This document shows positions 2 through 63,176 of a stretch of 64,000 nucleotides of DNA, piece after piece. The position numbers and the translations under genes are program-made. The stretch lies in the NCBI GenBank assembly GCA_947626105.1, contig CANQQY010000002.1:101083-165082 (forward strand), in the 5' to 3' direction. The DNA comes from an uncultured Clostridia bacterium. GTDB taxonomy: Bacteria; Bacillota; Clostridia; Christensenellales; Borkfalkiaceae. Positions within the stretch are counted from its first letter, which is position 1. Each line of letters starts with the position of its first letter. The notes beneath the pieces are model-generated. The model had not been told where the DNA came from and made no database searches. It saw nothing but the letters and a program-made list of their open reading frames with translations.

Positions 2-964
2 GAGCGGCTCGAAAAACTTGCCGCCCTCTATAACAGTAAAAAAGTGACCCCCGCCATCGTCGAATTTGTAGACATCGCGGGGCTCGTCAAGGGAGCGAGC
101 CGCGGAGAGGGGCTCGGTAATAAGTTTCTCTCGCACATCCGCGAATGCGACGCCATCGTGCACGTCGTGCGCTGTTTCGAGGACGAGAACGTCACCCACG
201 TCGAAAATTCCGTGGATCCCGTCCGCGACATCGAAACGATCAATTTAGAGCTCATTCTCGCCGATCTCGAAGCGGTGCAAAAGCGGCAGGACAGGATCAA
301 AAACGCCGCGCGCGGGGGCGCGGATAAGACAGCCGCCGCGGAATTTGCGTTTCTGGAAAAGCTGACGGCGCACCTCGAACAGGAACAGCCGGCGTCATGC
401 CTTCCCGTCAACGAGGATGAAAAAGTTTTGCTCGACAATCTCTTTTTGCTTTCCGCAAAACCCGTCGTCTATTGCGCCAATATTGCGGAAAAGGACATGG
501 GCGCCGACGAAAGCGGGCTTCCCCTCGTCCAAAAAGTGCGCAGTTATGCCGAAAAGCACGGCGCGGGCGTCATCGTCGTCTGCGCAAAGACGGAAGAGGA
601 GCTCGCCGAGATGGATCCCGCGGACGCGGCGGTGTTCCTCGAAGAGTTCGGGCTTAAAGAGAGCGGGCTCAACAAACTGATCAAGGCGTCCTACTCCCTT
701 CTCGGGCTGATCTCCTACCTCACGGCGGGCGAAAAAGAGACCCGCGCGTGGACGATCGTAAAGGGGACAAAGGCGCCGCAGGCGGCGGGAAAGATCCATA
801 CGGATTTTGAAAAAGGCTTTATCCGCGCCGAAGTCGTCGACTGGGAAACGCTACTCGAATGCGGCGGCCTTACGGGCGCGCGCGAGAAGGGCAAGGTGCG
901 CTCCGAAGGCAAAGATTATGTGATGAAGGACGGCGACGTCGTCTTGTTCAGATTCAACGTATAA
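2..964 (+). CDS. ychF: Ribosome-binding ATPase YchF, C-terminal ~320 aa (5' end lies outside the window)
   Basis: The frame is open from the window edge. Translation contains [40 protein letters not shown] and C-terminal GFIRAEV...[18 protein letters not shown], typical of YchF/OLA1. TAA at 962-964. Confidence 0.9.
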
Positions 965-965
965 A

Positions 966-1156
966 TCGCTCGATTTCTTTTGAAAGTCCGCCCTTTTCGG
1001 GCGGACTTTCAAAAGAAATACGAGCGAGGAAAGTTACTTTTTTGGGATATTGAGTCACTGTCTCGTTCGCTCGAAAGAACATGAAGTCGAAGGGGTTCGA
1101 CAAATTGAGTGCGCTGCCGCAAAAGCGTGGTTTTGCTTCGCGCAGTAATTTAGAAC
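966..1156 (-). repeat. Family D multi-hairpin element, copy D1 (diverged)
   Basis: Long stem TCGCTCGATTTCTTTTGAAAGTCCGCCC..GGGCGGACTTTCAAAAGAAATACGAGCGA abuts the ychF stop. The far end is GCGCAGTAATTTAGAAC, the reverse of the GTTCTAAATTAC junction motif. Confidence 0.75.
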
Positions 1157-21762: not shown

Positions 21763-22135
21763 ATGACGCGGTTGCCCCTTTGGCGCTCCCTTGAGGGGGA
21801 GCTGGCACCGCAGACGCCCCCCTTGGCGCCCCTCTTAGGGGAGATGTCACGAGCTTGTGAGTGACAGAGGGGTTTCTTGGCTCCCCTTATAGGGGAGCTG
21901 GCGCGTTGCCCTTGCGCGACTGAGGGGGTGTCGTTCTAAATTACGTCACCCTGAGCCGCCGCTGACAAAAGCGGCGTGTCGAAGGGTCACCGCATTATCA
22001 TAAGGTGATGGTTCGACTGCGCTCACCATGACGTGATTACCCCCTCAGTCACGCGTCCTTGTGAGACTGATGGGGTTCCGAAACCCCTTTCCCCTCACTA
22101 TGTTCGGGGACTTCCCCTGAAAGGGGCAACGATCG
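21763..22135. repeat. Intergenic mosaic repeat cluster R2
   Basis: Family A modules (CCCCTCTTAGGGGAGATGTCACGAGCTTGTGAGTGACAGAGGGGTTTC), the junction motif GTTCTAAATTAC and a family C unit. Confidence 0.85.
21943..22034. repeat. Family C TIR-bounded hairpin unit, copy C1
   Basis: ACGTCACCCTGAGC...GCTCACCATGACGT termini, with an internal GGTCACCGCATTATCATAAGGTGATGG hairpin. Confidence 0.75.
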
Positions 22136-27252: not shown

Positions 27253-27720
27253 GCTCGGCTCCCCCTCGTTCCTTGCTGCCCCTCTTAGGGGAAGTCCCCG
27301 AACAACGTGAGGGGAAAGGGGTTTCCAAAACCCCTCTGTCACTCACTGCGTTCGTGACATCTCAGGCGGAAAAGGCTCCAAAAATAGAATGGTCGCCTTT
27401 TCCTGCCATCCCTAAGGAAGGACCCTACAAGGGGCGACAAGGTTGGACTCCGTTCTTCGGGATCCTTCGGGCTTCGCCCTCAGGATGACGCGGTAAATCG
27501 GGGCAACTAGGTTCGCCCTTCGTTCTGAATTACTGCGCGAAGCAAAACCACGCTTTTGCGGCAGCGCACTCAATTTGCCGAACCCCTTCGGCTTACTGTC
27601 CTGTGAAACAAAACAGGGGCGGCCGAATTGTAATTACAAGGCAGAAATTTTAACCCCTCGCTCGTATTTATTTTTGAGCACGCGCCCACAAGGCGCGGAC
27701 GAAAAAAGAAATCGCGCGAA
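27253..27720. repeat. Intergenic mosaic repeat cluster R3
   Basis: Family A module, family H unit (CTCAGGCGGAAAAGGCTCCAAAAATAGAATGGTCGCC..., inverted copy at 40545-40605), half of a family B unit, and family D copy D2. Confidence 0.85.
27522..27719 (+). repeat. Family D multi-hairpin element, copy D2
   Basis: GTTCTGAATTAC, then TGCGCGAAGCAAAACCACGCTTTTGCGGCAGCGCA, CAATTTGCCGAACCCCTTCGGC, CCTGTGAAACA, GGCCGAAT, and CTCGCTCGTATTT...AAGAAATCGCGCG. Confidence 0.8.
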
Positions 27721-27763
27721 AAAAACTCCCGCTCCTGTGCAAAACAGGAGCGGGAGATTTTTT
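27720..27763. terminator. Bidirectional terminator downstream of GH43
   Basis: A-run, CTCCCGCTCCTGT-GCAAA-ACAGGAGCGGGAG, T-run. Confidence 0.75.
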
Positions 27764-35410: not shown

Positions 35411-35610
35411 ATTCCAAAATCACTTGCCTTAGGCGGAATTCACTTCCGCCGTGGGCGCCCCCATTTGGCACCCTACGGGAGCCTTAATGTCCTGTGAAAC
35501 AGAACAGGGACGGCCGAATCGCTTCTACAAGGCAAAAGCATTAATCCCTCGTTCGATTTCTTTTTGAGCATGCGCCCAAAGGCACAGACGAAAAAAGAAA
35601 TCGAACGAAA
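35411..35610 (+). repeat. Family D multi-hairpin element, copy D3
   Basis: ATTCCAAAATCAC, then AGGCGGAATTCACTTCCGCC, ATTTGGCACCCTACGGGAGCC, CCTGTGAAACAG, GGCCGAATCG, TACAAGGCA, and ...AAGAAATCGAACGAAA. Confidence 0.8.
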
Positions 35611-35620
35611 TAAAAAACGC

Positions 35621-35655: not shown

Positions 35656-35905
35656 GCTGTGATAGGTGGGGAGTTAGCGGTGCCCTGAATCTGCAATCCG
35701 CTATAGCAGAGCCGAACGCTTTTCTCGGTGCCGTCTATGGGAGGCTGCGCGGGGTAAGCAGTGATGATCGCAAGGTCTTATGCAACGCGCGTCCGCGAAC
35801 CGTGTCAGGGTAGGGATACAGCAGCACTAAACGGTGCCGCGCGTGTGCCATGAGGTAGCTTTGCGGGAGCCGGCTGCCACGTTACCGCTCCGGTAGGTTG
35901 CAACA
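35656..35905 (+). ncRNA. ffs: Signal recognition particle RNA, long (Bacillus-type, with Alu domain)
   Basis: GUGUCAGGGUAGGGAUACAGCAGC and GCGUGUGCCAUGAGGUAGCU match the domain IV strands of E. coli 4.5S (GUCAGGUCCGGAAGGAAGCAGC; GCGUGUGCCGGGAUGUAGCU). The 5' GGUGGGGAGUUAGCGGUGCC is Alu-domain-like. The ends are approximate. Confidence 0.75.
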
Positions 35906-35937
35906 AAAAAAGCCCTCACAGTTTTTTTGAAAAGATT

Positions 35938-38024: not shown

Positions 38025-38207
38025 CTTGGCGCCCTGTTCTACGCGTCATTCCAAATCACGTCATCTTGAGCCTGTCGAAAGATCACCGCATTATAATAAG
38101 GTGATGCTTCGACTATGCTCAGCATGACGTATTTTTATGACACCCCTTCCGTCACGGCAAGGACAGCCGTGCCACCCACCCCTCGAGGGGTGGGCAAGGA
38201 TGAGCTC
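38025..38207. repeat. Intergenic mosaic repeat cluster R6
   Basis: Junction motif CATTCCAAATCAC, family C copy, and a family F-like GCCACCCACCCCTCGAGGGGTGGGCAAGG. Confidence 0.8.
38058..38130. repeat. Family C TIR-bounded hairpin unit, copy C2
   Basis: ACGTCATCTTGAGC...GCTCAGCATGACGT, with an internal GATCACCGCATTATAATAAGGTGATGC hairpin. Confidence 0.8.
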
Positions 38208-38315: not shown

Positions 38316-40412
38316 TTAATTGAGTTTTTCGAGAAGTTTGAAGTCGATGCCCTTCTCGCCGATCTTGATGATCTTGACCTTGACCGTATCGCCGATGTTC
38401 AGGACGTCCTCGACCTTTTCGACGCGCTTATCGGACAGCTTGGAGATATGGATCATGCCGTCCTTGCCGGGAGCAAACTCTACGAACGCGCCCATCGTGG
38501 AGAGCACGCGGACGACTCTGCCGATGAACATATCGCCGACCTCGGGGTCGTGGACGATGCTCTCGATGATCGCCTTTGCCTTCTGCGCCGCCTCTGCGTC
38601 CCCGTAGGAAGCGATGCAGACGGTGCCGTCCTCTTCGATGTCGATCTTGGTGCCCGTCTCGGCAATGATCGAATTGATGACCTTGCCCTGCTTGCCGACG
38701 ACGTCGCCGATTTTCTCGGGGTCGATCGTGAAGAAGATGATGCGGGGTGCATACTTCGAAAGTTCGGGCGCGACTTCGGGCACGCATTCGAGCATCTTGC
38801 TCAAAATGAACTGTCTGCCCTCGTTCGCCTGTTCGATCGCCGTATGCATGATCTCTTCGGAGATGCCCTTGATCTTGATATCCATCTGGATCGCGGTAAT
38901 TCCCTTGGTGGTGCCTGCGACCTTGAAGTCCATATCGCCGAGGAAGTCCTCGAGCCCCTGGATATCGGTCATGACGCGGAACTCGCCCGTCTCCTGGTTC
39001 TTGATGAGTCCCATCGCGACGCCCGCAACGGGAGCCTTGATCGGAACGCCGGCGTCCATGAGCGCCATCGTCGAGCCGCAGACGGAAGCCATCGAGCTCG
39101 AACCGTTGGACGAAAGGATGTCGTTGACGACGCGGATCGCATAAGGGAATTCTTCTTTGGAAGGAATGACGGGCTCGAGGGCGCGCTCTGCAAGGGCGCC
39201 GTGGCCGATCTCGCGCCTGCCGGGGCTGCGGAGCGCCTTCGCTTCACCCGTGCAGTAGCCGGGGAAGTTGTATTGGTGCATGTAGCGCTTCTCTGTCTCG
39301 TCGTCAAGGCCTTCCAGCTTCTGCGCCGCGGCGAGCATATCGAGGGTGCAGGTCGTGAGGGTCTGCGTTTGGCCGCGGGTGAACACCGCCGAGCCGTGCG
39401 CACGGGGCAGGACGCTCCTCTCGCACCAGATGGGGCGAATGTCTTTGAGGCCTCTGCCGTCGGGGCGGATGCCCTTGTCGAAGATCTTTGCGCGGACCTT
39501 CTCCTTCGTCAGATAATAAATGGAATCGTTGATCTCGCGCGTGTTGTCGGGATAGATATCCTTAAAATGTTCCAAAACTTCCGCGCCGACCTGATCCTGA
39601 CGGGACTGCCGCTCTTGACGGTCGAAGGTGTCGAGCGCCCAGTCGAGCTTTTCGCTTGCGTATGCGCGGACGGCTGCGTCGATCTCTTCGGGAATGTGGT
39701 AGAGCTCGATCTCCTTCTTCGCCTTGCCGACGGCGGGAACGATCTCATTCTCGATTTGAAGGCAGATCTTGGCGATCTCGGCTTGTCCGAACATGATCGC
39801 GCCGACCATCTCGTCGTTCGTGACCTCGTTCGCGCCCGCTTCGATCATGAGAATGGCGTCCTTGGTGCCCGCAAGATTGAGGTGGATGGTGCTCTTTTCG
39901 CGCTGGGCGGCGTCGGGATTGATGACGTACTGTCCGTCAACGAGTCCCACGACGACGGAACCCGTCGGACCCGCCCACGGAATGTCCGAAATGGCGAGCG
40001 CAATGGAGGAGCCGATCATGGCGAGGGGCTCGGGCGCAACGTCGGGCTCGACGGAAAGGGCGGTCGCCGTAACGACGACGTCGTTGAAAAGCCCCTTCGG
40101 GAAGAGCGGACGCAGGGGTCTGTCGATGAGGCGGGCGGTGAGGATCGCCTTATCGGACGCTCTGCCCTCTCTGCGTTTGAATCCGCCCGGGATCTTGCCG
40201 ACCGCGTACATCTTCTCTTCATAATCCACTTGAAGAGGGAAGAAGTCGATGCCCTCGCGGGGAGTCGCCGACATGCAGACGTTGACCATGACGGCAGTCT
40301 CGCCGCAGCGGACGACGCAGTGGCCGTTCGTCTGCTCTGCATACTTGCCCGTCTCTACGGTGACCTCTCTGCCGCCGACCGACAGCTTAAATTCTTTGTA
40401 GTTTGGTGTCAT
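38316..40412 (-). CDS. pnp: Polyribonucleotide nucleotidyltransferase (PNPase)
   Basis: 698 aa with two RNase PH domains, KH and S1 (GDMFIGRVVRVLSTMGAFVEFAPGKDGMIHISKL). Confidence 0.95.
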   Translation of the reverse strand: MTPNYKEFKLSVGGREVTVETGKYAEQTNGHCVVRCGETAVMVNVCMSATPREGIDFFPLQVDYEEKMYAVGKIPGGFKRREGRASDKAILTARLIDRPLRPLFPKGLFNDVVVTATALSVEPDVAPEPLAMIGSSIALAISDIPWAGPTGSVVVGLVDGQYVINPDAAQREKSTIHLNLAGTKDAILMIEAGANEVTNDEMVGAIMFGQAEIAKICLQIENEIVPAVGKAKKEIELYHIPEEIDAAVRAYASEKLDWALDTFDRQERQSRQDQVGAEVLEHFKDIYPDNTREINDSIYYLTKEKVRAKIFDKGIRPDGRGLKDIRPIWCERSVLPRAHGSAVFTRGQTQTLTTCTLDMLAAAQKLEGLDDETEKRYMHQYNFPGYCTGEAKALRSPGRREIGHGALAERALEPVIPSKEEFPYAIRVVNDILSSNGSSSMASVCGSTMALMDAGVPIKAPVAGVAMGLIKNQETGEFRVMTDIQGLEDFLGDMDFKVAGTTKGITAIQMDIKIKGISEEIMHTAIEQANEGRQFILSKMLECVPEVAPELSKYAPRIIFFTIDPEKIGDVVGKQGKVINSIIAETGTKIDIEEDGTVCIASYGDAEAAQKAKAIIESIVHDPEVGDMFIGRVVRVLSTMGAFVEFAPGKDGMIHISKLSDKRVEKVEDVLNIGDTVKVKIIKIGEKGIDFKLLEKLN

Positions 40413-40657
40413 TGTTTCTCTTTCTCCTTACTCCTTGATTTCTTTGCCCCGTGATCCCGTGACCACGGGAGCGATTTTCTTGTTTGATGCTTTGTTGGCG
40501 CCCCGGAATCCCCTTAGCGCCCCCTTGAGGGGTCCTTCCTTAGGGATGGCGGGAAAAGGCGACCATTCTATTTTTGGAGCTTTTTCCGCCTGAGCTGTCG
40601 CGCGCCCTTGCGCGACTGATGGGGTGTCGTTCCGGTTACCTGAGGGTGTTCCCGATC

Positions 40658-40732
40658 ACGTCATGGTGAGCCTGGTCGAACCATCACTTTATTTATAATG
40701 CGGTGATGCTTCGACTACGCTCAGCATGACGT
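40658..40732. repeat. Family C TIR-bounded hairpin unit, copy C3
   Basis: ACGTCATGGTGAGC...GCTCAGCATGACGT, with an internal CCATCAC..GGTGATG hairpin. Confidence 0.8.
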
Positions 40733-40801
40733 ATTTTGGAACCATTGCCCACCCCCCTACCCCCCTCCTTGGGAGGGGGCATGTTCAGAGAGTCTGCCCT
40801 T

Positions 40802-40996
40802 CGTTCCCAATCACGGTGCGAGGCGGGTCTCCCGCCGCTGCACGCCCCCATTTGGTACCCTACGGGAACCTTAATGTTGTGTGAAACAGAAACGGGACGG
40901 CCGAATCGTACTACAAGGCAAAAGTCTTAACCCCTCGCTCGTATTTGTTTTGCGCTCGCGCCGACAAGGCGCGAGCTCAAAAGAAATCGAGCGAAA
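40802..40996 (+). repeat. Family D multi-hairpin element, copy D4
   Basis: CGTTCCCAATCAC, then GGTGCGAGGCGGGTCTCCCGCCGCTGCAC, ATTTGGTACCCTACGGGAACC, GTGTGAAACAG, GGCCGAATCG, and CTCGCTCGTATTTGTTTTGCGCTCGCGCC..GGCGCGAGCTCAAAAGAAATCGAGCGAAA. Confidence 0.8.
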
Positions 40997-41000
40997 TGCG

Positions 41001-41030
41001 AAAAAAAAGGCGGCAAAAAACCCGCCCTTT
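41001..41030 (-). terminator. Terminator after rpsO
   Basis: Minus strand reads AAAGGGCGG-GTTTTTTG-CCGCC-TTTTTTTT. Confidence 0.6.
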
Positions 41031-41037
41031 CTGTTCG

Positions 41038-41292
41038 TTATTTACGAAGTCCGAGCTGTTCGACAATGGCTCTGTAACGCTCGATATCCTTCGCTTTGAG
41101 GTAGTCCAAGAGCCCGCGGCGCTTACCGACCATCTTCAAGAGCCCGCGGCGGGAGTGATTGTCCTGCTTGTGGATCTTGAGGTGCTCGTTGAGGTGGTTG
41201 ATGCGTTCGGTGAGGAGCGCGATCTGAACTTCGGGCGAACCCGTATCCCCCTCGTGCTGGGCATACTTTGCGATGATTTCTTGCTTTTCCAT
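41038..41292 (-). CDS. rpsO: 30S ribosomal protein S15
   Basis: [51 protein letters not shown]. Confidence 0.95.
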
Positions 41293-41373
41293 TTGCGTTT
41301 ATCCTCCTATGGAATGTGTTGCGTTACGCCAAGAATAGCGTGGAGAGCGCAATTCCTCGCGTACGTCAAACAT

Positions 41374-41402
41374 AGGATATCATATTTCGGAGAATAAGTC
41401 AA
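41374..41402 (-). promoter_or_regulatory. Promoter of rpsO (leader of about 75 nt follows)
   Basis: Minus strand reads TTGACT, 17 nt, TGa-TATCCT. Confidence 0.5.
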
Positions 41403-41447
41403 AGGATTTTAGGGGCAATTCGGAAAATTTACCATTCACTCCCTCGG

Positions 41448-41665
41448 CGCCCCCTTGAGAGGCGGCGCGACCGCCCTTGGCTCGACTGAGGGGTTTTCCG
41501 CGTCATCCTGAGCCAGTGAGTTGTACGTAGTCTGAAACGCAATACCGCGAAGGATCCCGAAGAACGGAGTCCGAACCTTCATCGTCGGGATTCTTCCCCT
41601 TCGACTACGCTCAGGGTCAGAATGACGCGTTGTCCCTCGGCTCCCCTCGAAGGGGAGGAGCGGCT
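41448..41665. repeat. Intergenic mosaic repeat cluster R8
   Basis: CCCTCGGCGCCCCCTTGAGAGG, GCGCGACCGCCCTTGGCTCGACTGAGGGG, a full family B unit and CCCTCGGCTCCCCTCGAAGGGGAGG. Confidence 0.8.
41499..41629. repeat. Family B TIR-bounded hairpin unit, copy B4 (long form)
   Basis: CGCGTCATCCTGAGC...GCTCAGGGTCAGAATGACGCG. The interior contains GAAGGATCCCGAAGAACGGAGTCCGAAC, the reverse of the B1 core. Confidence 0.75.
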
Positions 41666-41670
41666 GTATT

Positions 41671-43101
41671 TCAGCCCTCGGGATAGGGCAAAGCGTTCTC
41701 GGGCGGGACGACCTTCGTCTTGCCGTAGTCATAATAACAATGATAGACGTCTTTCGAAATGTTATCACTCCTCCAATGGACATACGCGACGCGTCCCTCT
41801 GTAAATTTGAGCTCTACATATTTCAAGTTCGTTCCCATCCCGTCGCCGGCTGTAAATCTGAACTTTAAGCCGTCCGATCCCTCGGGCGCTTCATAAAGAT
41901 ATGCGCCGAGCTCCTCGTTATAGGTAAACTCTTTGTAATAATCGGAAAAATCCGTCGCAATCAGAGTAGCATAGAAGAAGGAATACTCCCCGTCCAACAT
42001 CATATATTCCTCCCACTCCGCCAATTTTTCCGGCGTAAACCCGTATTGCATATAATAGATCTGCTTGTCAAAGGTTTGATACTGCGTGCAGACGCCGTTC
42101 TCAATCATCTGGCCTCCAACAGAATCGTACTCCCCGTCCGGCGTCGGAATGGTGACCACAGACAACATTTTGAAACGCCCTTCCAAAGTCATACGTGTCT
42201 CCTCCCAGTCGAGATACATTTTTGCGCGTTGGTCGTCCGCGCCTCCGATGTCGCCGCGCGTCTCTCTCAAAGTCACGTTCTTGAAATTCTCTTCGGAATA
42301 GATCGCTCTCCACTCCTCTTCCGTCACCCGATCGGAAACGAGCGCCTCAAAATCGGTATCCTCCGTGAGCGTGATGTGCTGATGCTCTCCGCCGTCAAAC
42401 GTCACGCTCGCCTTGCCGAAATCATAGACGATGCAATCCACGGCAGACGTCCCGAGTTCGGGACGTCCTTCCTCATTCAACACGTCTGCCCAAATACCGC
42501 AGAGTACGCCGTCCTTAATGATAACGCCCGTCGTCCCTTCGGAAAGAAACACCGCTTCCGTCGTCGTATAGCACTTCTTGGCCGCGTCATATACGAAAGA
42601 GGAATACTTCTCTTTCAGCGCGAGAATATAAGCGCGGTACGAATAGGGGATCTCTCCGCTTTCGGGGGTATAGTCGTCCCCGTCAAAGACCAACTCGCCC
42701 TCGATCTCATTCCATGCCGAAACCTCCCCATCCGTCTCCGACATCAACATGTGTTGCCCGAGCATTTTTTCGCCGTCCTCCAAAATACGATACATCGAGA
42801 AATCCGCTTTTTTCCCGTCGAACGCGCCCTCAACGTACGCGTCCTCGTAGGGAGTATCGTATGTATATGTTAAGAGGAAATTGTCGAACTTTTCCGCCGC
42901 AAATACCGCCTTCCATTCCTCCCCCGTCACCTCGTCGGACGTGAGCGAACGAAGATCGGTCTCCTTCGTCATCGTAAATCCCGCGCTGTCCGCAGGATCG
43001 TGCCCGCCGTTCTCTTCACCTTGATTGTCGCCGCACGCCCCGCACAGCCCGAGCGCAAACATCGCGGCAAGCGAGACTGCCAAAATTCCAAACTTTTTCA
43101 T
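41671..43101 (-). CDS. Lipoprotein of unknown function with an internal duplication
   Basis: Signal peptide and lipobox LGLCGAC. Two similar halves (TKETDLRSLTSDEVTGEEWKAVF... and TEDTDFEALVSDRVTEEEWRAIY...). Confidence 0.6.
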   Translation of the reverse strand: MKKFGILAVSLAAMFALGLCGACGDNQGEENGGHDPADSAGFTMTKETDLRSLTSDEVTGEEWKAVFAAEKFDNFLLTYTYDTPYEDAYVEGAFDGKKADFSMYRILEDGEKMLGQHMLMSETDGEVSAWNEIEGELVFDGDDYTPESGEIPYSYRAYILALKEKYSSFVYDAAKKCYTTTEAVFLSEGTTGVIIKDGVLCGIWADVLNEEGRPELGTSAVDCIVYDFGKASVTFDGGEHQHITLTEDTDFEALVSDRVTEEEWRAIYSEENFKNVTLRETRGDIGGADDQRAKMYLDWEETRMTLEGRFKMLSVVTIPTPDGEYDSVGGQMIENGVCTQYQTFDKQIYYMQYGFTPEKLAEWEEYMMLDGEYSFFYATLIATDFSDYYKEFTYNEELGAYLYEAPEGSDGLKFRFTAGDGMGTNLKYVELKFTEGRVAYVHWRSDNISKDVYHCYYDYGKTKVVPPENALPYPEG

Positions 43102-45033: not shown

Positions 45034-45366
45034 GAAGTACCCGACCACCCCCTTGCTTCCCCTCTTAGGGGAAGTACCCGCGCAGCGGGGGATAGGGTTT
45101 CCGGAAACCCCTCTGTCACTCACTACGTTCGTGACATCTCCCCTAAAAGGGGCGACAAGGCGAGCCCTTCGTTCTAAATTACGGCGCGTGGTAGGGTCTC
45201 CCTGCCTAAGCGCACTCAATTTGCCGAACCCCTTCGGCTTAATGTCCTGTGAAACAGAACGTCGGCGGCCGAATCGTTTTTACAAGGCAGAAGTCTTAAC
45301 CCCTCGCTCGTATTTCTTTTGCGCTTGCGCCGACAAGGCGCAAGCGCAAAAGAAATCGAGCGAAAC
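45034..45366. repeat. Intergenic mosaic repeat cluster R9
   Basis: Family A module (CTTCCCCTCTTAGGGGAAGTACCCGCGCAGCGGGGGATAGGGTTTCCGGAAACCCCTCTGTCACTCACTACGTTCGTGACATCTCCCCTAAAAGGGGCGAC) followed by D5. Confidence 0.85.
45171..45365 (+). repeat. Family D multi-hairpin element, copy D5
   Basis: GTTCTAAATTAC, then GGCGCGTGGTAGGGTCTCCCTGCCTAAGCGCA, CAATTTGCCGAACCCCTTCGGC, CCTGTGAAACAG, GGCCGAATCG, and CTCGCTCGTATTTCTTTTGCGCTTGCGCC..GGCGCAAGCGCAAAAGAAATCGAGCGAAA. It abuts the relA stop. Confidence 0.85.
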
Positions 45367-56349: not shown

Positions 56350-56845
56350 TTATTTCGCTAATTTCTTTGCTCGTCCGCGCGTAAGGCCTACCCCTTGGGG
56401 TGGAGGCTCCCTAGGAGGAACCATGCCCCCTCCTGAGGAGGGGGAGAGGGGGGTGGGCAAGACCTGCCCCTGTTTACGGGGGCGGGTGGCGCGCAAAGCG
56501 CGTCAGGTGGGGGTTTCTTGCTTCCCCTCTTAGGGAAAATTTTGCACTTCTGCCAAAGATTGATAATCTTTGGCGCAAAATTTTCTTGGCATTTGCCCAT
56601 TTGTTCGGGCAAATGCTGACCGAACGCGGGTCTCTACCCGCGTGAGACAGTACCCGCGCAGCGGGGGATAGGGTTTCAAAACCCCTCTGTCACTCACTGC
56701 GTTCGTGACATCTCCCCTAAGAGGGGCGACTAGATCCTCTGTCACTCACTGCGTTCGTGACAGCTCCCCTACAAGGGGCGACAAGATCCTCTGTTGCTCA
56801 CTACGTTCGCGACAGCTCCCCTACAAGGGGCGCCGAGGGGGGCTC
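56350..56845. repeat. Intergenic mosaic repeat cluster R10
   Basis: Degenerate D end, family F and G units, family E unit, then three 52-nt tandem family A units reaching to within about 12 nt of the queA stop. Confidence 0.85.
56517..56674 (+). repeat. Family E unit, left arm of an inverted pair flanking queA
   Basis: Its reverse complement matches 58643-58800 at 157 of 158 positions (hand alignment). Internal hairpins: GCCAAAGATTGATAATCTTTGGC, GCATTTGCCC..GGGCAAATGC and CGCGGGTCTCTACCCGCG. Confidence 0.9.
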
Positions 56846-57886: not shown

Positions 57887-58063
57887 GTTTCGCTCGATTT
57901 CTTTGCTGCGCAAAGAAATACGAGCGAGGGGTTAAGTTTTTTGCGTTGTAATTACAATTCGGCCGCCCCTTTTCTGTTTCACAGGACAGTAAGCCGAAGG
58001 GGTTCGGCAAATTGAGTCGCCCACGGCGGAAGTGAATTCCGCCTAAGGCTAGTAATTTCAAAC
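57887..58063 (-). repeat. Family D multi-hairpin element, copy D6
   Basis: GTTTCGCTCGATTTCTTTGCTGCGCAAAGAAATACGAGCGAGGGGTTAAG ... GCCGAAGGGGTTCGGCAAATTGAG ... GGCGGAAGTGAATTCCGCC ... AGTAATTTCAAAC. Confidence 0.85.
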
Positions 58064-58065
58064 TT

Positions 58066-58294
58066 GTTTCGCTCGATTTCTTTGCTGCGCAAAGAAATAC
58101 GAGCGAGGGGTTAGTTCTTTTGCCTTGTAAAAGCAATTCGGCCACCCCTTTTCTGTTTCACACGACATGAAGCCGAAGGGGTTCGGCAAATTGAGTCGCC
58201 CTACTTCGCCCTGCGGGCTCGTGCCGCGCTTAGTGCAATAGAATGCGCGCGGGGCGGCGGAAGTGAATTCCGCCTAAGGCAAGTTATTTGGAAC
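58066..58294 (-). repeat. Family D multi-hairpin element, copy D7 (with an insertion of about 60 nt)
   Basis: Same ends as D6. Extra segment around 58198-58256 (GCCCTACTTCGCCCTGCGGGCTCGTGCCGCGCTTAGTGCAATAGAATGCGCGCGGGGC). Confidence 0.85.
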
Positions 58295-58296
58295 TT

Positions 58297-58467
58297 GTTT
58301 CGCTCGATTTCTTTGCTGCGCAAAGAAATACGAGCGAGGGGTTAAGTTTTTTGCGTTGTAATTCGGCCGCCCCTTTTCTGTTTCACAGAACATTAAACCG
58401 AAGGGGTTCGGCAAATTGAGTGCGCTGCCGCAAAAGCGTGGTTTTGCTTCGCGCAGTGATTTAGAAC
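58297..58467 (-). repeat. Family D multi-hairpin element, copy D8
   Basis: Same 5' stem as D6/D7. The distal hairpin is of the TGCGCTGCCGCAAAAGCGTGGTTTTGCTTCGCGCA type, as in D1/D2. It ends with GTGATTTAGAAC. Confidence 0.85.
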
Positions 58468-62691: not shown

Positions 62692-63170
62692 GGCAGATAA
62701 GGCTCCTCCCAAGGAGGAGCTGTCACCGCAAGGTGACTGAGGCGGGCATCTCGGCGCCCCTTCCAGGGGAGCTGTCTCGAACGTAGTGAGTGACTGAGGG
62801 GTTTCGAAACCCCTTTCCCCCTCGCAAGCTCGGGGGACTTCCCCTAAAAGGGGCAGCAAGGAATAAGGTGACGTAATCAGAACCATTGCCCACCCCCTTA
62901 ATCCCCCTCCTCGGGAGGGAGCATGGCTCCTCCCAAGGAAGAGCTGTCACCGCAGGTGACTGAGGTGGGCACGCTCTAAATCACGGTGCGAGGCGGGTTT
63001 CCCGCCGCTGCACGCCCACATTTGGCACCCTACGGGAGCCTTAATGTCCTGTGAAACAGAACGGGGACGGCCGAATCGCTTCTACAAGGCAAATGCACTA
63101 ACCCCTCGCTCGTATTTATTTTGAAAGTCCGCCCTACTCGGGCGGACTTTCATAAAGAAATCGAGCGAAA
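62692..63170. repeat. Intergenic mosaic repeat cluster R12
   Basis: Family A modules (GAGGGGTTTCGAAACCCCT), a family F unit (GAACCATTGCCCACCCCC...GGGAGGGAGCATGG), and D9. Confidence 0.85.
62973..63170 (+). repeat. Family D multi-hairpin element, copy D9
   Basis: GCTCTAAATCAC, then GGTGCGAGGCGGGTTTCCCGCCGCTGCAC, ATTTGGCACCCTACGGGAGCC, CCTGTGAAACAG, GGCCGAATCG, and CTCGCTCGTATTTATTTTGAAAGTCCGCCC..GGGCGGACTTTCATAAAGAAATCGAGCGAAA. It abuts the queH stop. Confidence 0.85.
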
Positions 63171-63176
63171 TAAAAA

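Follow-up and report, generated by a model that had tools for sequence, protein, structure and literature searches.

What the locus raises as a question

Our interest in this locus arose from a short A/T-rich motif, TTCYMAATYAC, that stands directly in front of two hairpin modules (families C and D) that look unrelated to each other. The window, by which we mean the whole stretch of 64,000 nucleotides that was analysed (G+C about 57%), had been described in a first-pass annotation as holding twelve intergenic clusters assembled from common modules, with the motif as a pre-existing target for single-strand cargos of the IS608 kind. The descriptive part of that account was borne out. The twelve clusters, which sum to 5186 nt, do draw on common modules as BIME/BOX-like mosaics, the motif variants quoted are all correct, and a general kinship with REP-type hairpin repeats is supported. 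The clusters fold far better than shuffles (z -7 to -10), and the exact motif occurs six times in the window against 0.19 expected, a count reached in 0 of 100 shuffles. The proposal that the motif is a landing site fared differently. It is probably a built-in A/T-rich terminal arm of the C and D repeat units, which are arranged in BIME-like mosaics.

The setting of the best-studied cluster is given by the following genes.

35657-35921: SRP RNA gene (Rfam match)
38316-40412, minus strand: pnp, polynucleotide phosphorylase of 698 aa (Pfam families)
41038-41292, minus strand: rpsO (Pfam families)

The mosaic at 40495-40997 occupies the rpsO-pnp spacer, which is a classical one, and the pnp orthologues in related loci L045 and L048 carry RNase_PH, PNPase, KH and S1 domains. 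The SRP RNA gene was the sole Rfam 15 match in the window; a search of 40400-41700 at E values up to 10 returned no credible match, and no Rfam family matched D, C or the motif at gathering or permissive threshold.

Comparisons were made in a total sample of about 1.08 Mb, comprising the window and 159 loci (numbered with the prefix L) fetched by pattern or protein identity. Within it, a D-ascertained set of 328 kb consists of the window and 44 loci from three rabbit-gut 'uncultured Clostridia' metagenome-assembled genomes (MAGs). A collection-wide scan for motif plus C returned at least 109 loci in at least 27 species-level MAGs, nearly all of them rabbit-gut Clostridia; these loci were chosen by motif plus C itself, and counts from them are biased accordingly. 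The pattern also matched once each in a Candidatus Magasanikbacteria locus (L154) and a Terrimicrobiaceae locus (L157), which may reflect chance, contamination or a wide spread of CGTC-type hairpins. Logan contigs assembled from public reads are broken up by the repeats and too fragmented for clean indels, and a search of public RNA runs found none containing the region.

The motif seldom stands by itself. The related MAG loci (328 kb) contain 56 exact copies, all but about three of which stand before the 5' hairpin of a D copy or before a GTCAYNNTGAGC unit, and 203 of the 212 exact copies in the 1.08 Mb, a count that carries the bias of the loci chosen by motif plus C, precede a C or D unit. 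In 5 of 15 cases an H-type module (..GGGTGGGCAATGG) has a motif-like TTCTGATTGC or TTCTGAATTAT after it, with neither C nor D beyond, and upstream modules such as ..GACTGAGGTGGGCA lack the motif where no D follows (6 of 17 cases). One candidate solo motif, at window position 41425, was rejected; it is part of unique DNA near a promoter, and this DNA is conserved even where strains lack the cluster.

The motif flanks family C on both sides

The C units of the window and their flanks are as follows.

21934-21944, plus strand: motif copy before C unit 1 (21945-22032)
38049-38059, plus strand: motif copy before C unit 2 (38060-38128)
40649-40659, plus strand: motif copy TTCCCGATCAC, left arm of C unit 3
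40660-40730, no strand assigned: C unit 3, two inverted CGTC+AT hairpin arms
40731-40741, minus strand: inverted motif, reading TTCCAAAATAC on that strand, right arm of C unit 3

All three units have the motif directly 5' when up to two changes are allowed, as the first-pass annotation had stated. It had not recorded the inverted motif on the far side of C, exemplified by 40731-40741 on the minus strand. The right flank of C unit 1, GTGATTAC, is a truncated inverted motif with an outer stem GACTGAGGGGGT/ACCCCCTCAGTC, and that of C unit 2, GTATTTTTATGA, is a degenerate one. C unit 3 and its motif arms together form a single long hairpin when folded (dG -26 kcal/mol, z -6.7).

To classify C and B ends we anchored on the internal ends GTCAYNNTGAGC and GCTCANNRTGAC only. 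Ends that follow GC define family B (GC then GTCATYCTGAGC), which is without the motif, a difference that the first-pass annotation had overlooked, and ends that follow AC define family C. In the D-ascertained set a motif-like sequence is present at 19 of 19 such AC/GTCA ends, on both flanks of each unit and in inverted orientation. Among the matches listed, 59-64 complete C units from at least 27 MAG species have a left consensus, gCgTTCCtAATCAC, that is the reverse complement of the right one, GCaTTCccAATcAC, and in several species the DNA beyond these arms looks unique. The mirrored arrangement identifies the motif at C as a terminal inverted repeat, or basal stem, and a one-sided insertion target therefore cannot account for it. 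The left (F) and right (R) arms were compared across the C units of L056-L160 and the window in a search for pairing covariation, and none was found; Watson-Crick pairs at F9/R3' amount to 0.30 against 0.53 expected. Since the variable positions mismatch above chance, the arms of C are systematically imperfect inverted repeats.

The motif is the conserved 5' terminus of family D

Family D is represented in the window by nine copies.

963-1155, minus strand: D copy 1, motif 1145-1155; overlapping at its 3' end with the stop codon of the gene that ends at 964
27523-27722, plus strand: D copy 2, motif 27523-27533; 3' end adjoins the terminator of a convergent gene
35412-35611, plus strand: D copy 3, motif 35412-35423 (12-nt variant TTCCAAAATCAC), TTGCC-type hairpin; 3' end beside the SRP RNA promoter
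40804-40814, plus strand: motif copy TTCCCAATCAC, 5' terminus of D copy 4
40804-40997, plus strand: D copy 4, covariance model R1 187 bits; 3' hairpin end adjoins the convergent rpsO terminator
45172-45366, plus strand: D copy 5, motif 45172-45182; 3' end 2 nt from a convergent stop codon
57887-58466, minus strand: tandem D copies 6-8, motifs 58052-58062, 58283-58293 and 58456-58466; the array adjoins the queA start codon
58203-58254, minus strand: module I (CCCCGCGCGC..GCGAAGT) in the 5' hairpin of D copy 7
62974-63171, plus strand: D copy 9, motif 62974-62984 (CTCTAAATCAC); 3' tail adjoins a convergent stop codon

The motif directly precedes every one of the nine copies when up to two changes are allowed, in agreement with the original description. 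A covariance model built on these copies recovered about 69 full copies in the window and the 44 loci, and the motif (up to two edits) heads 57 of 69 D copies in the lineage of the window and 14 of 22 in other species. Copies without it are either decayed, interrupted by an insert in their 5' hairpin, or located at tandem junctions, where AATYAC survives. In a profile of 62 copies the motif positions AAT and AC hold 1.5-1.9 bits, equal to the core of D. Diverged full-length copies occur in at least 13 MAG species, and in L045 the hairpins of D have changed by compensation and GTTCCCAATTAC has been retained.

Variation within the motif follows the subtype of D. A 12-nt variant with four A residues is found in 8 of 17 copies with the TTGCC hairpin and in 2 of 44 others (Fisher p = 2.7e-4), and this linkage, which holds across several upstream contexts, indicates that D carries the 3' part of the motif along with it. 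The 5' half (TTCC or TTCT, and position 5) follows the upstream context, which fits a mosaic in which linkage decays with distance, and could partly belong to the upstream neighbour.

D carries the motif at one end only. A possible hidden right arm inside it (GTGAAACAGAAC) was rejected with a PWM score of 6.2, the 95% level of the null being 8.8. In other species the usual order is ..TGAC, GTGATTTRGAAY, a loop of 12-14 nt, TTCCNAATSAC and D, so arranged that the motif of D pairs with the inverted arm of the upstream C unit; the lineage of the window has extra modules between these R and F arms (40742-40803).

A mechanism that would join these observations can be sketched from the two unit structures. 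C reads (C)(R)TTCYNAATYAC, two inverted CGTC+AT hairpin arms of about 70 nt, and GTRATTNRGAA(Y)(G), with the motif arms forming the base of one long hairpin and serving as the terminal inverted repeat of a REPIN/MITE-like unit. D is a chain of four to five hairpins, about 190 nt in all, with the motif as its fixed 5' terminus, and the layout of most related species is C, R arm, 12-14-nt loop, F arm and D, the D motif pairing with the inverted copy of C. The same motif would then precede two seemingly unrelated modules because both carry the same end, either through the same putative trans-acting machinery or through descent from one composite C-D unit. The arm itself may act as a recognition or structural element. 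Clusters would grow and reshuffle as small modules become nested in stems and loops, as units are duplicated in tandem, and as the repeated arms recombine or delete what lies between them.

Orthologous sites and the landing-site proposal

At every orthologous site available, D or a 3' stub of D adjoins the same unique flank, often with another variant of the internal sequence. In all six haplotypes of the rpsO-pnp spacer (478-1113 nt) D lies beside the rpsO terminator, the position of D copy 4 being kept throughout. At window position 56350 a D stub stands alone where L011 and L033 have a full D. The polymorphic D copies are second, tandem ones only: relatives carry one, two or three D copies upstream of queA, L025 and L043 have an additional D after copy 9, and L006 has one next to the SRP promoter, the latter two being absent from the window. 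No orthologous site without the first D or without a C unit was found, so the boundary of a single insertion is never seen directly.

For C, a flank-to-flank search for empty sites returned paralogous module contexts and filled orthologues only. The pair L062 and L119 differ by the presence of a whole block (spacer, F, C and R), with one R arm left. As a separate observation, the entire C-containing cluster at 38025-38207 (AT-rich island to pnp) is missing from the Lapin-014 bin44 MAG (L018:2450-2509), where a terminator and about 60 nt are all that is present. Recombination and deletion involving the repeated arms account for the patterns of presence and absence no less well than transposition does.

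These comparisons bear on the original proposal, in which AATYAC is a pre-existing target and C and D are non-autonomous elements of IS200/IS605 type, or RAYT-mobilised single-strand elements, moved in trans without target duplication. Several features agree with it. The hairpin begins directly after the motif in both families and target duplication is seen nowhere. D is asymmetric, with nothing but unique DNA or a further D on its 3' side, as expected of a left-end target, an element and a unique flank, and at one orthologous position the close relatives L045 and L052 share the same upstream sequence and motif, which are followed by D in the former and by C, an inverted arm and a D remnant in the latter. 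Module I shows that duplication-free, site-biased insertion does take place within the same system. Nevertheless, the motif is mirrored beyond C, D never follows the many interior motif copies, and no motif-only empty site exists in the 1.08 Mb. The first-pass annotation had predicted empty sites ending in AAT(T/C)AC. The two available for D, both from second tandem copies, end ..GAAATAAAAA(A)C, reading GAGCGAAATAAAAAC followed by TATCTC and CGAACGAAATAAAAAAC followed by GCTTGC, and both are without TYAC.

The comparison with IS608 points the same way. IS608 inserts 3' of TTAC (PMC3201880, PMC5027513), and its TnpA, which binds similar subterminal palindromes at the two ends, cuts at some distance from these palindromes (PMC3201880). 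The present repeats resemble the IS200/IS605 family in lacking target duplication, in their hairpin-rich ends, in the asymmetry of D and in a conserved ..TYAC 5' of the first hairpin. They differ in the mirrored motif around C and in empty sites without it, and the 5' hairpin of D lies 0-1 nt after the motif and is unrelated to its 3' hairpin. Neither TnpA nor TnpB was seen in the DNA sampled. An HUH..Y regular expression matched 0 of 1553 sampled ORFs, a phmmer search of 8884 ORFs (3230 and 5654, 1.08 Mb) with E. coli RayT gave no hit better than E = 2, no RAYT gene lay within 8 kb of about 105 motif-plus-C sites among the matches listed, and all-against-all clustering of 2712 ORFs yielded only orthologous housekeeping genes as multi-copy families. 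We consider a pre-existing target unlikely. The motif instead behaves essentially as an internal part of a larger co-inherited unit, the outcome that the annotation itself had set against its proposal, as seen in its two-sided placement at C, its conservation as the D terminus and the linkage of its variants to the D hairpin.

A related proposal places the target in a hairpin loop. A resident F-loop-R or R-loop-F hairpin would receive C, H and other modules in its loop or centre, giving nested 'Russian-doll' palindromes. Cargo-free R-loop-F hairpins do lie upstream of D in many species, and the additional modules of the window lineage sit between R and F. L022:5315 reads GGGGTGTC, 14 nt and GACACCCC, and L028 and L006 have a C unit inside the same stem. 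Di Nocera et al. (2013, PMC3733652) likewise describe REP dimers nested in longer conserved palindromes, free copies of which are absent. However, an F arm followed directly by an R arm, which is the empty centre, occurs nowhere in the 1.08 Mb, the 'empty' loop of L022 holds only half a motif, and the evidence is paralogous rather than orthologous. A loop target is thus improbable, and the motif as a terminal arm of both units remains our preferred reading.

Module I provides clean insertion polymorphisms in these mosaics. It is a discrete insert of 52-57 nt (CCCCGCGCGCATTCTATTGCACTAAGCGCGG..GCGAAGT) without target duplication, situated always between ..YG and AG.. and often within a GTCAYNNTG/AGC arm or a D hairpin. 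Close relatives differ in its presence: it is absent between window positions 40668 and 40669 and present there in L048, L024 and L046, and further polymorphisms were found in L045 and between L060 and L089.

Folding and possible function of family D

The 3' end of D (..AAAGAAATCGAGCGAAAY) is followed by unique flank in 51 cases, by another D in 16, and by another module in 0 of 67, a regularity that the first-pass annotation had not recorded. The median distance is 5 nt to a convergent stop codon (37 cases) and 12 nt to a co-directional start codon (18 cases), with window positions 963, 40997, 45366, 57887 and 63171 as examples of such coding boundaries. The 3' terminus 'stutters' in places, for example as ..GAACGAAAT then CGAGCGAAAC, at window 56350-56381, at L043:640-670 and in L034, L023, L005 and L020; these stutters look like remnants of tandem D copies deleted between GAAAT microhomologies.

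Folding was examined in 95 aligned copies of D, drawn from at least 13 MAG species. The paired share of cells is 92.4%, compared with 42-57% in slid controls, double changes occur in 32 of 35 pairs, compensatory cells number 401 against 121 in shuffles, and the D-sense strand has 124 G.T pairs against 27 A.C pairs; since related copies were aligned by fitting them to the model, the covariation and the G.T excess are a hint, not proof, of an RNA. The excess suggests, from sequence, that the D-sense strand is the one that folds.

The motif-capped D may accordingly be viewed as a strand-specifically folded functional boundary element and not mere selfish DNA, a reading that we regard as rather unlikely. 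In one form it could be an RNA that terminates, insulates or stabilises a neighbouring transcript. In a bolder form it could be an orphan scaffold resembling a guide RNA, with the unique flank as guide and the 5' ..TYAC as target-adjacent motif. A functional D would explain why gene boundaries are kept despite replaced sequence, why the hairpins covary and why the 3' flank is unique.

It is also conceivable, if decidedly improbable, that the motif itself is a functional single-stranded RNA or DNA signal kept by selection beside stable hairpins; it could be an A/U-rich site for an RNase or a binding protein, or belong to a promoter that drives a D-sense RNA. The motif is A/T-rich and unpaired or weakly paired between GC-rich hairpins, and the strong covariation of the D hairpins, the bias towards G.T on the D-sense strand and the upkeep of D at gene boundaries while its sequence is replaced would suit such a signal. 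Against this, there is no conserved -35 element, the upstream contexts differ, no Rfam family matches, and the two-sided inverted layout at C is simpler as an inverted repeat. A promoter proper was rejected, the sequence 17 bp upstream not being conserved.

Comparison with known repeat families

The BIMEs of enterobacteria are composed of REP hairpins and short conserved linker motifs. The present clusters are similar in being intergenic and built from few hairpin modules in varying order and orientation, in having constant short non-palindromic segments between the hairpins, and in being placed mostly behind genes and in the gaps of convergent gene pairs; in BIME fashion, the motif alternates between F and R arms around C and ahead of D. 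They differ in having hairpins without a GTAG tag, in belonging to Clostridia, in the lack of any RAYT within the sampled DNA, and in a large multi-hairpin module of 190 nt, D, that always forms one edge of the cluster. REPINs consist of two inverted REPs forming one long hairpin and are thought to be mobilised by RAYTs. Family C resembles them as an inverted doublet of about 70-100 nt that forms one long hairpin and has many dispersed copies. Unlike REPINs, it has no flanking RAYT gene in the sample, its tag differs, and its units lie in mosaics rather than being mostly solitary.

BOX elements of Streptococcus pneumoniae have the structure boxA-boxB(n)-boxC, and share with the present repeats a modular unit, segments swapped between copies and tandem sub-repeats. 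The polarity of D, in contrast, is fixed towards the ends of coding sequences, and its 5' arm is common to a second, palindromic family. Classical DDE-type MITEs share inverted repeats with C, but the outer flanks of C are inverted complements or unrelated and never direct repeats, and D is without a second arm.

In the tag itself there is a resemblance to the CGTC-tagged REP superfamily, which has no known transposase and for which Di Nocera et al. list phyla that do not include Firmicutes (PMC3733652). As in the examples given there, the B and C arms start with CGTC and then AT, occur as inverted pairs, and the pairs lie in a longer conserved palindrome. Single C and B arms fold weakly alone (z -0.9 to -2.1), and membership of this superfamily is therefore treated as unproven.

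What the arrangement means

The motif and its hairpin families add a new example to a kind of bacterial mosaic repeat that is already known. The account in terms of single-strand transposition is best abandoned unless a Y1 enzyme comes to light. In its place, a clade of uncultured gut Clostridia can be said to carry CGTC-type hairpin doublets inside a conserved palindrome, and its genomes hold unusually dense and fast-reshuffling mosaics. Two pieces have been isolated from these mosaics, a covarying element of 190 nt that hugs the ends of coding sequences and a module I with clean insertion polymorphisms, and the latter could reveal how such repeats move.
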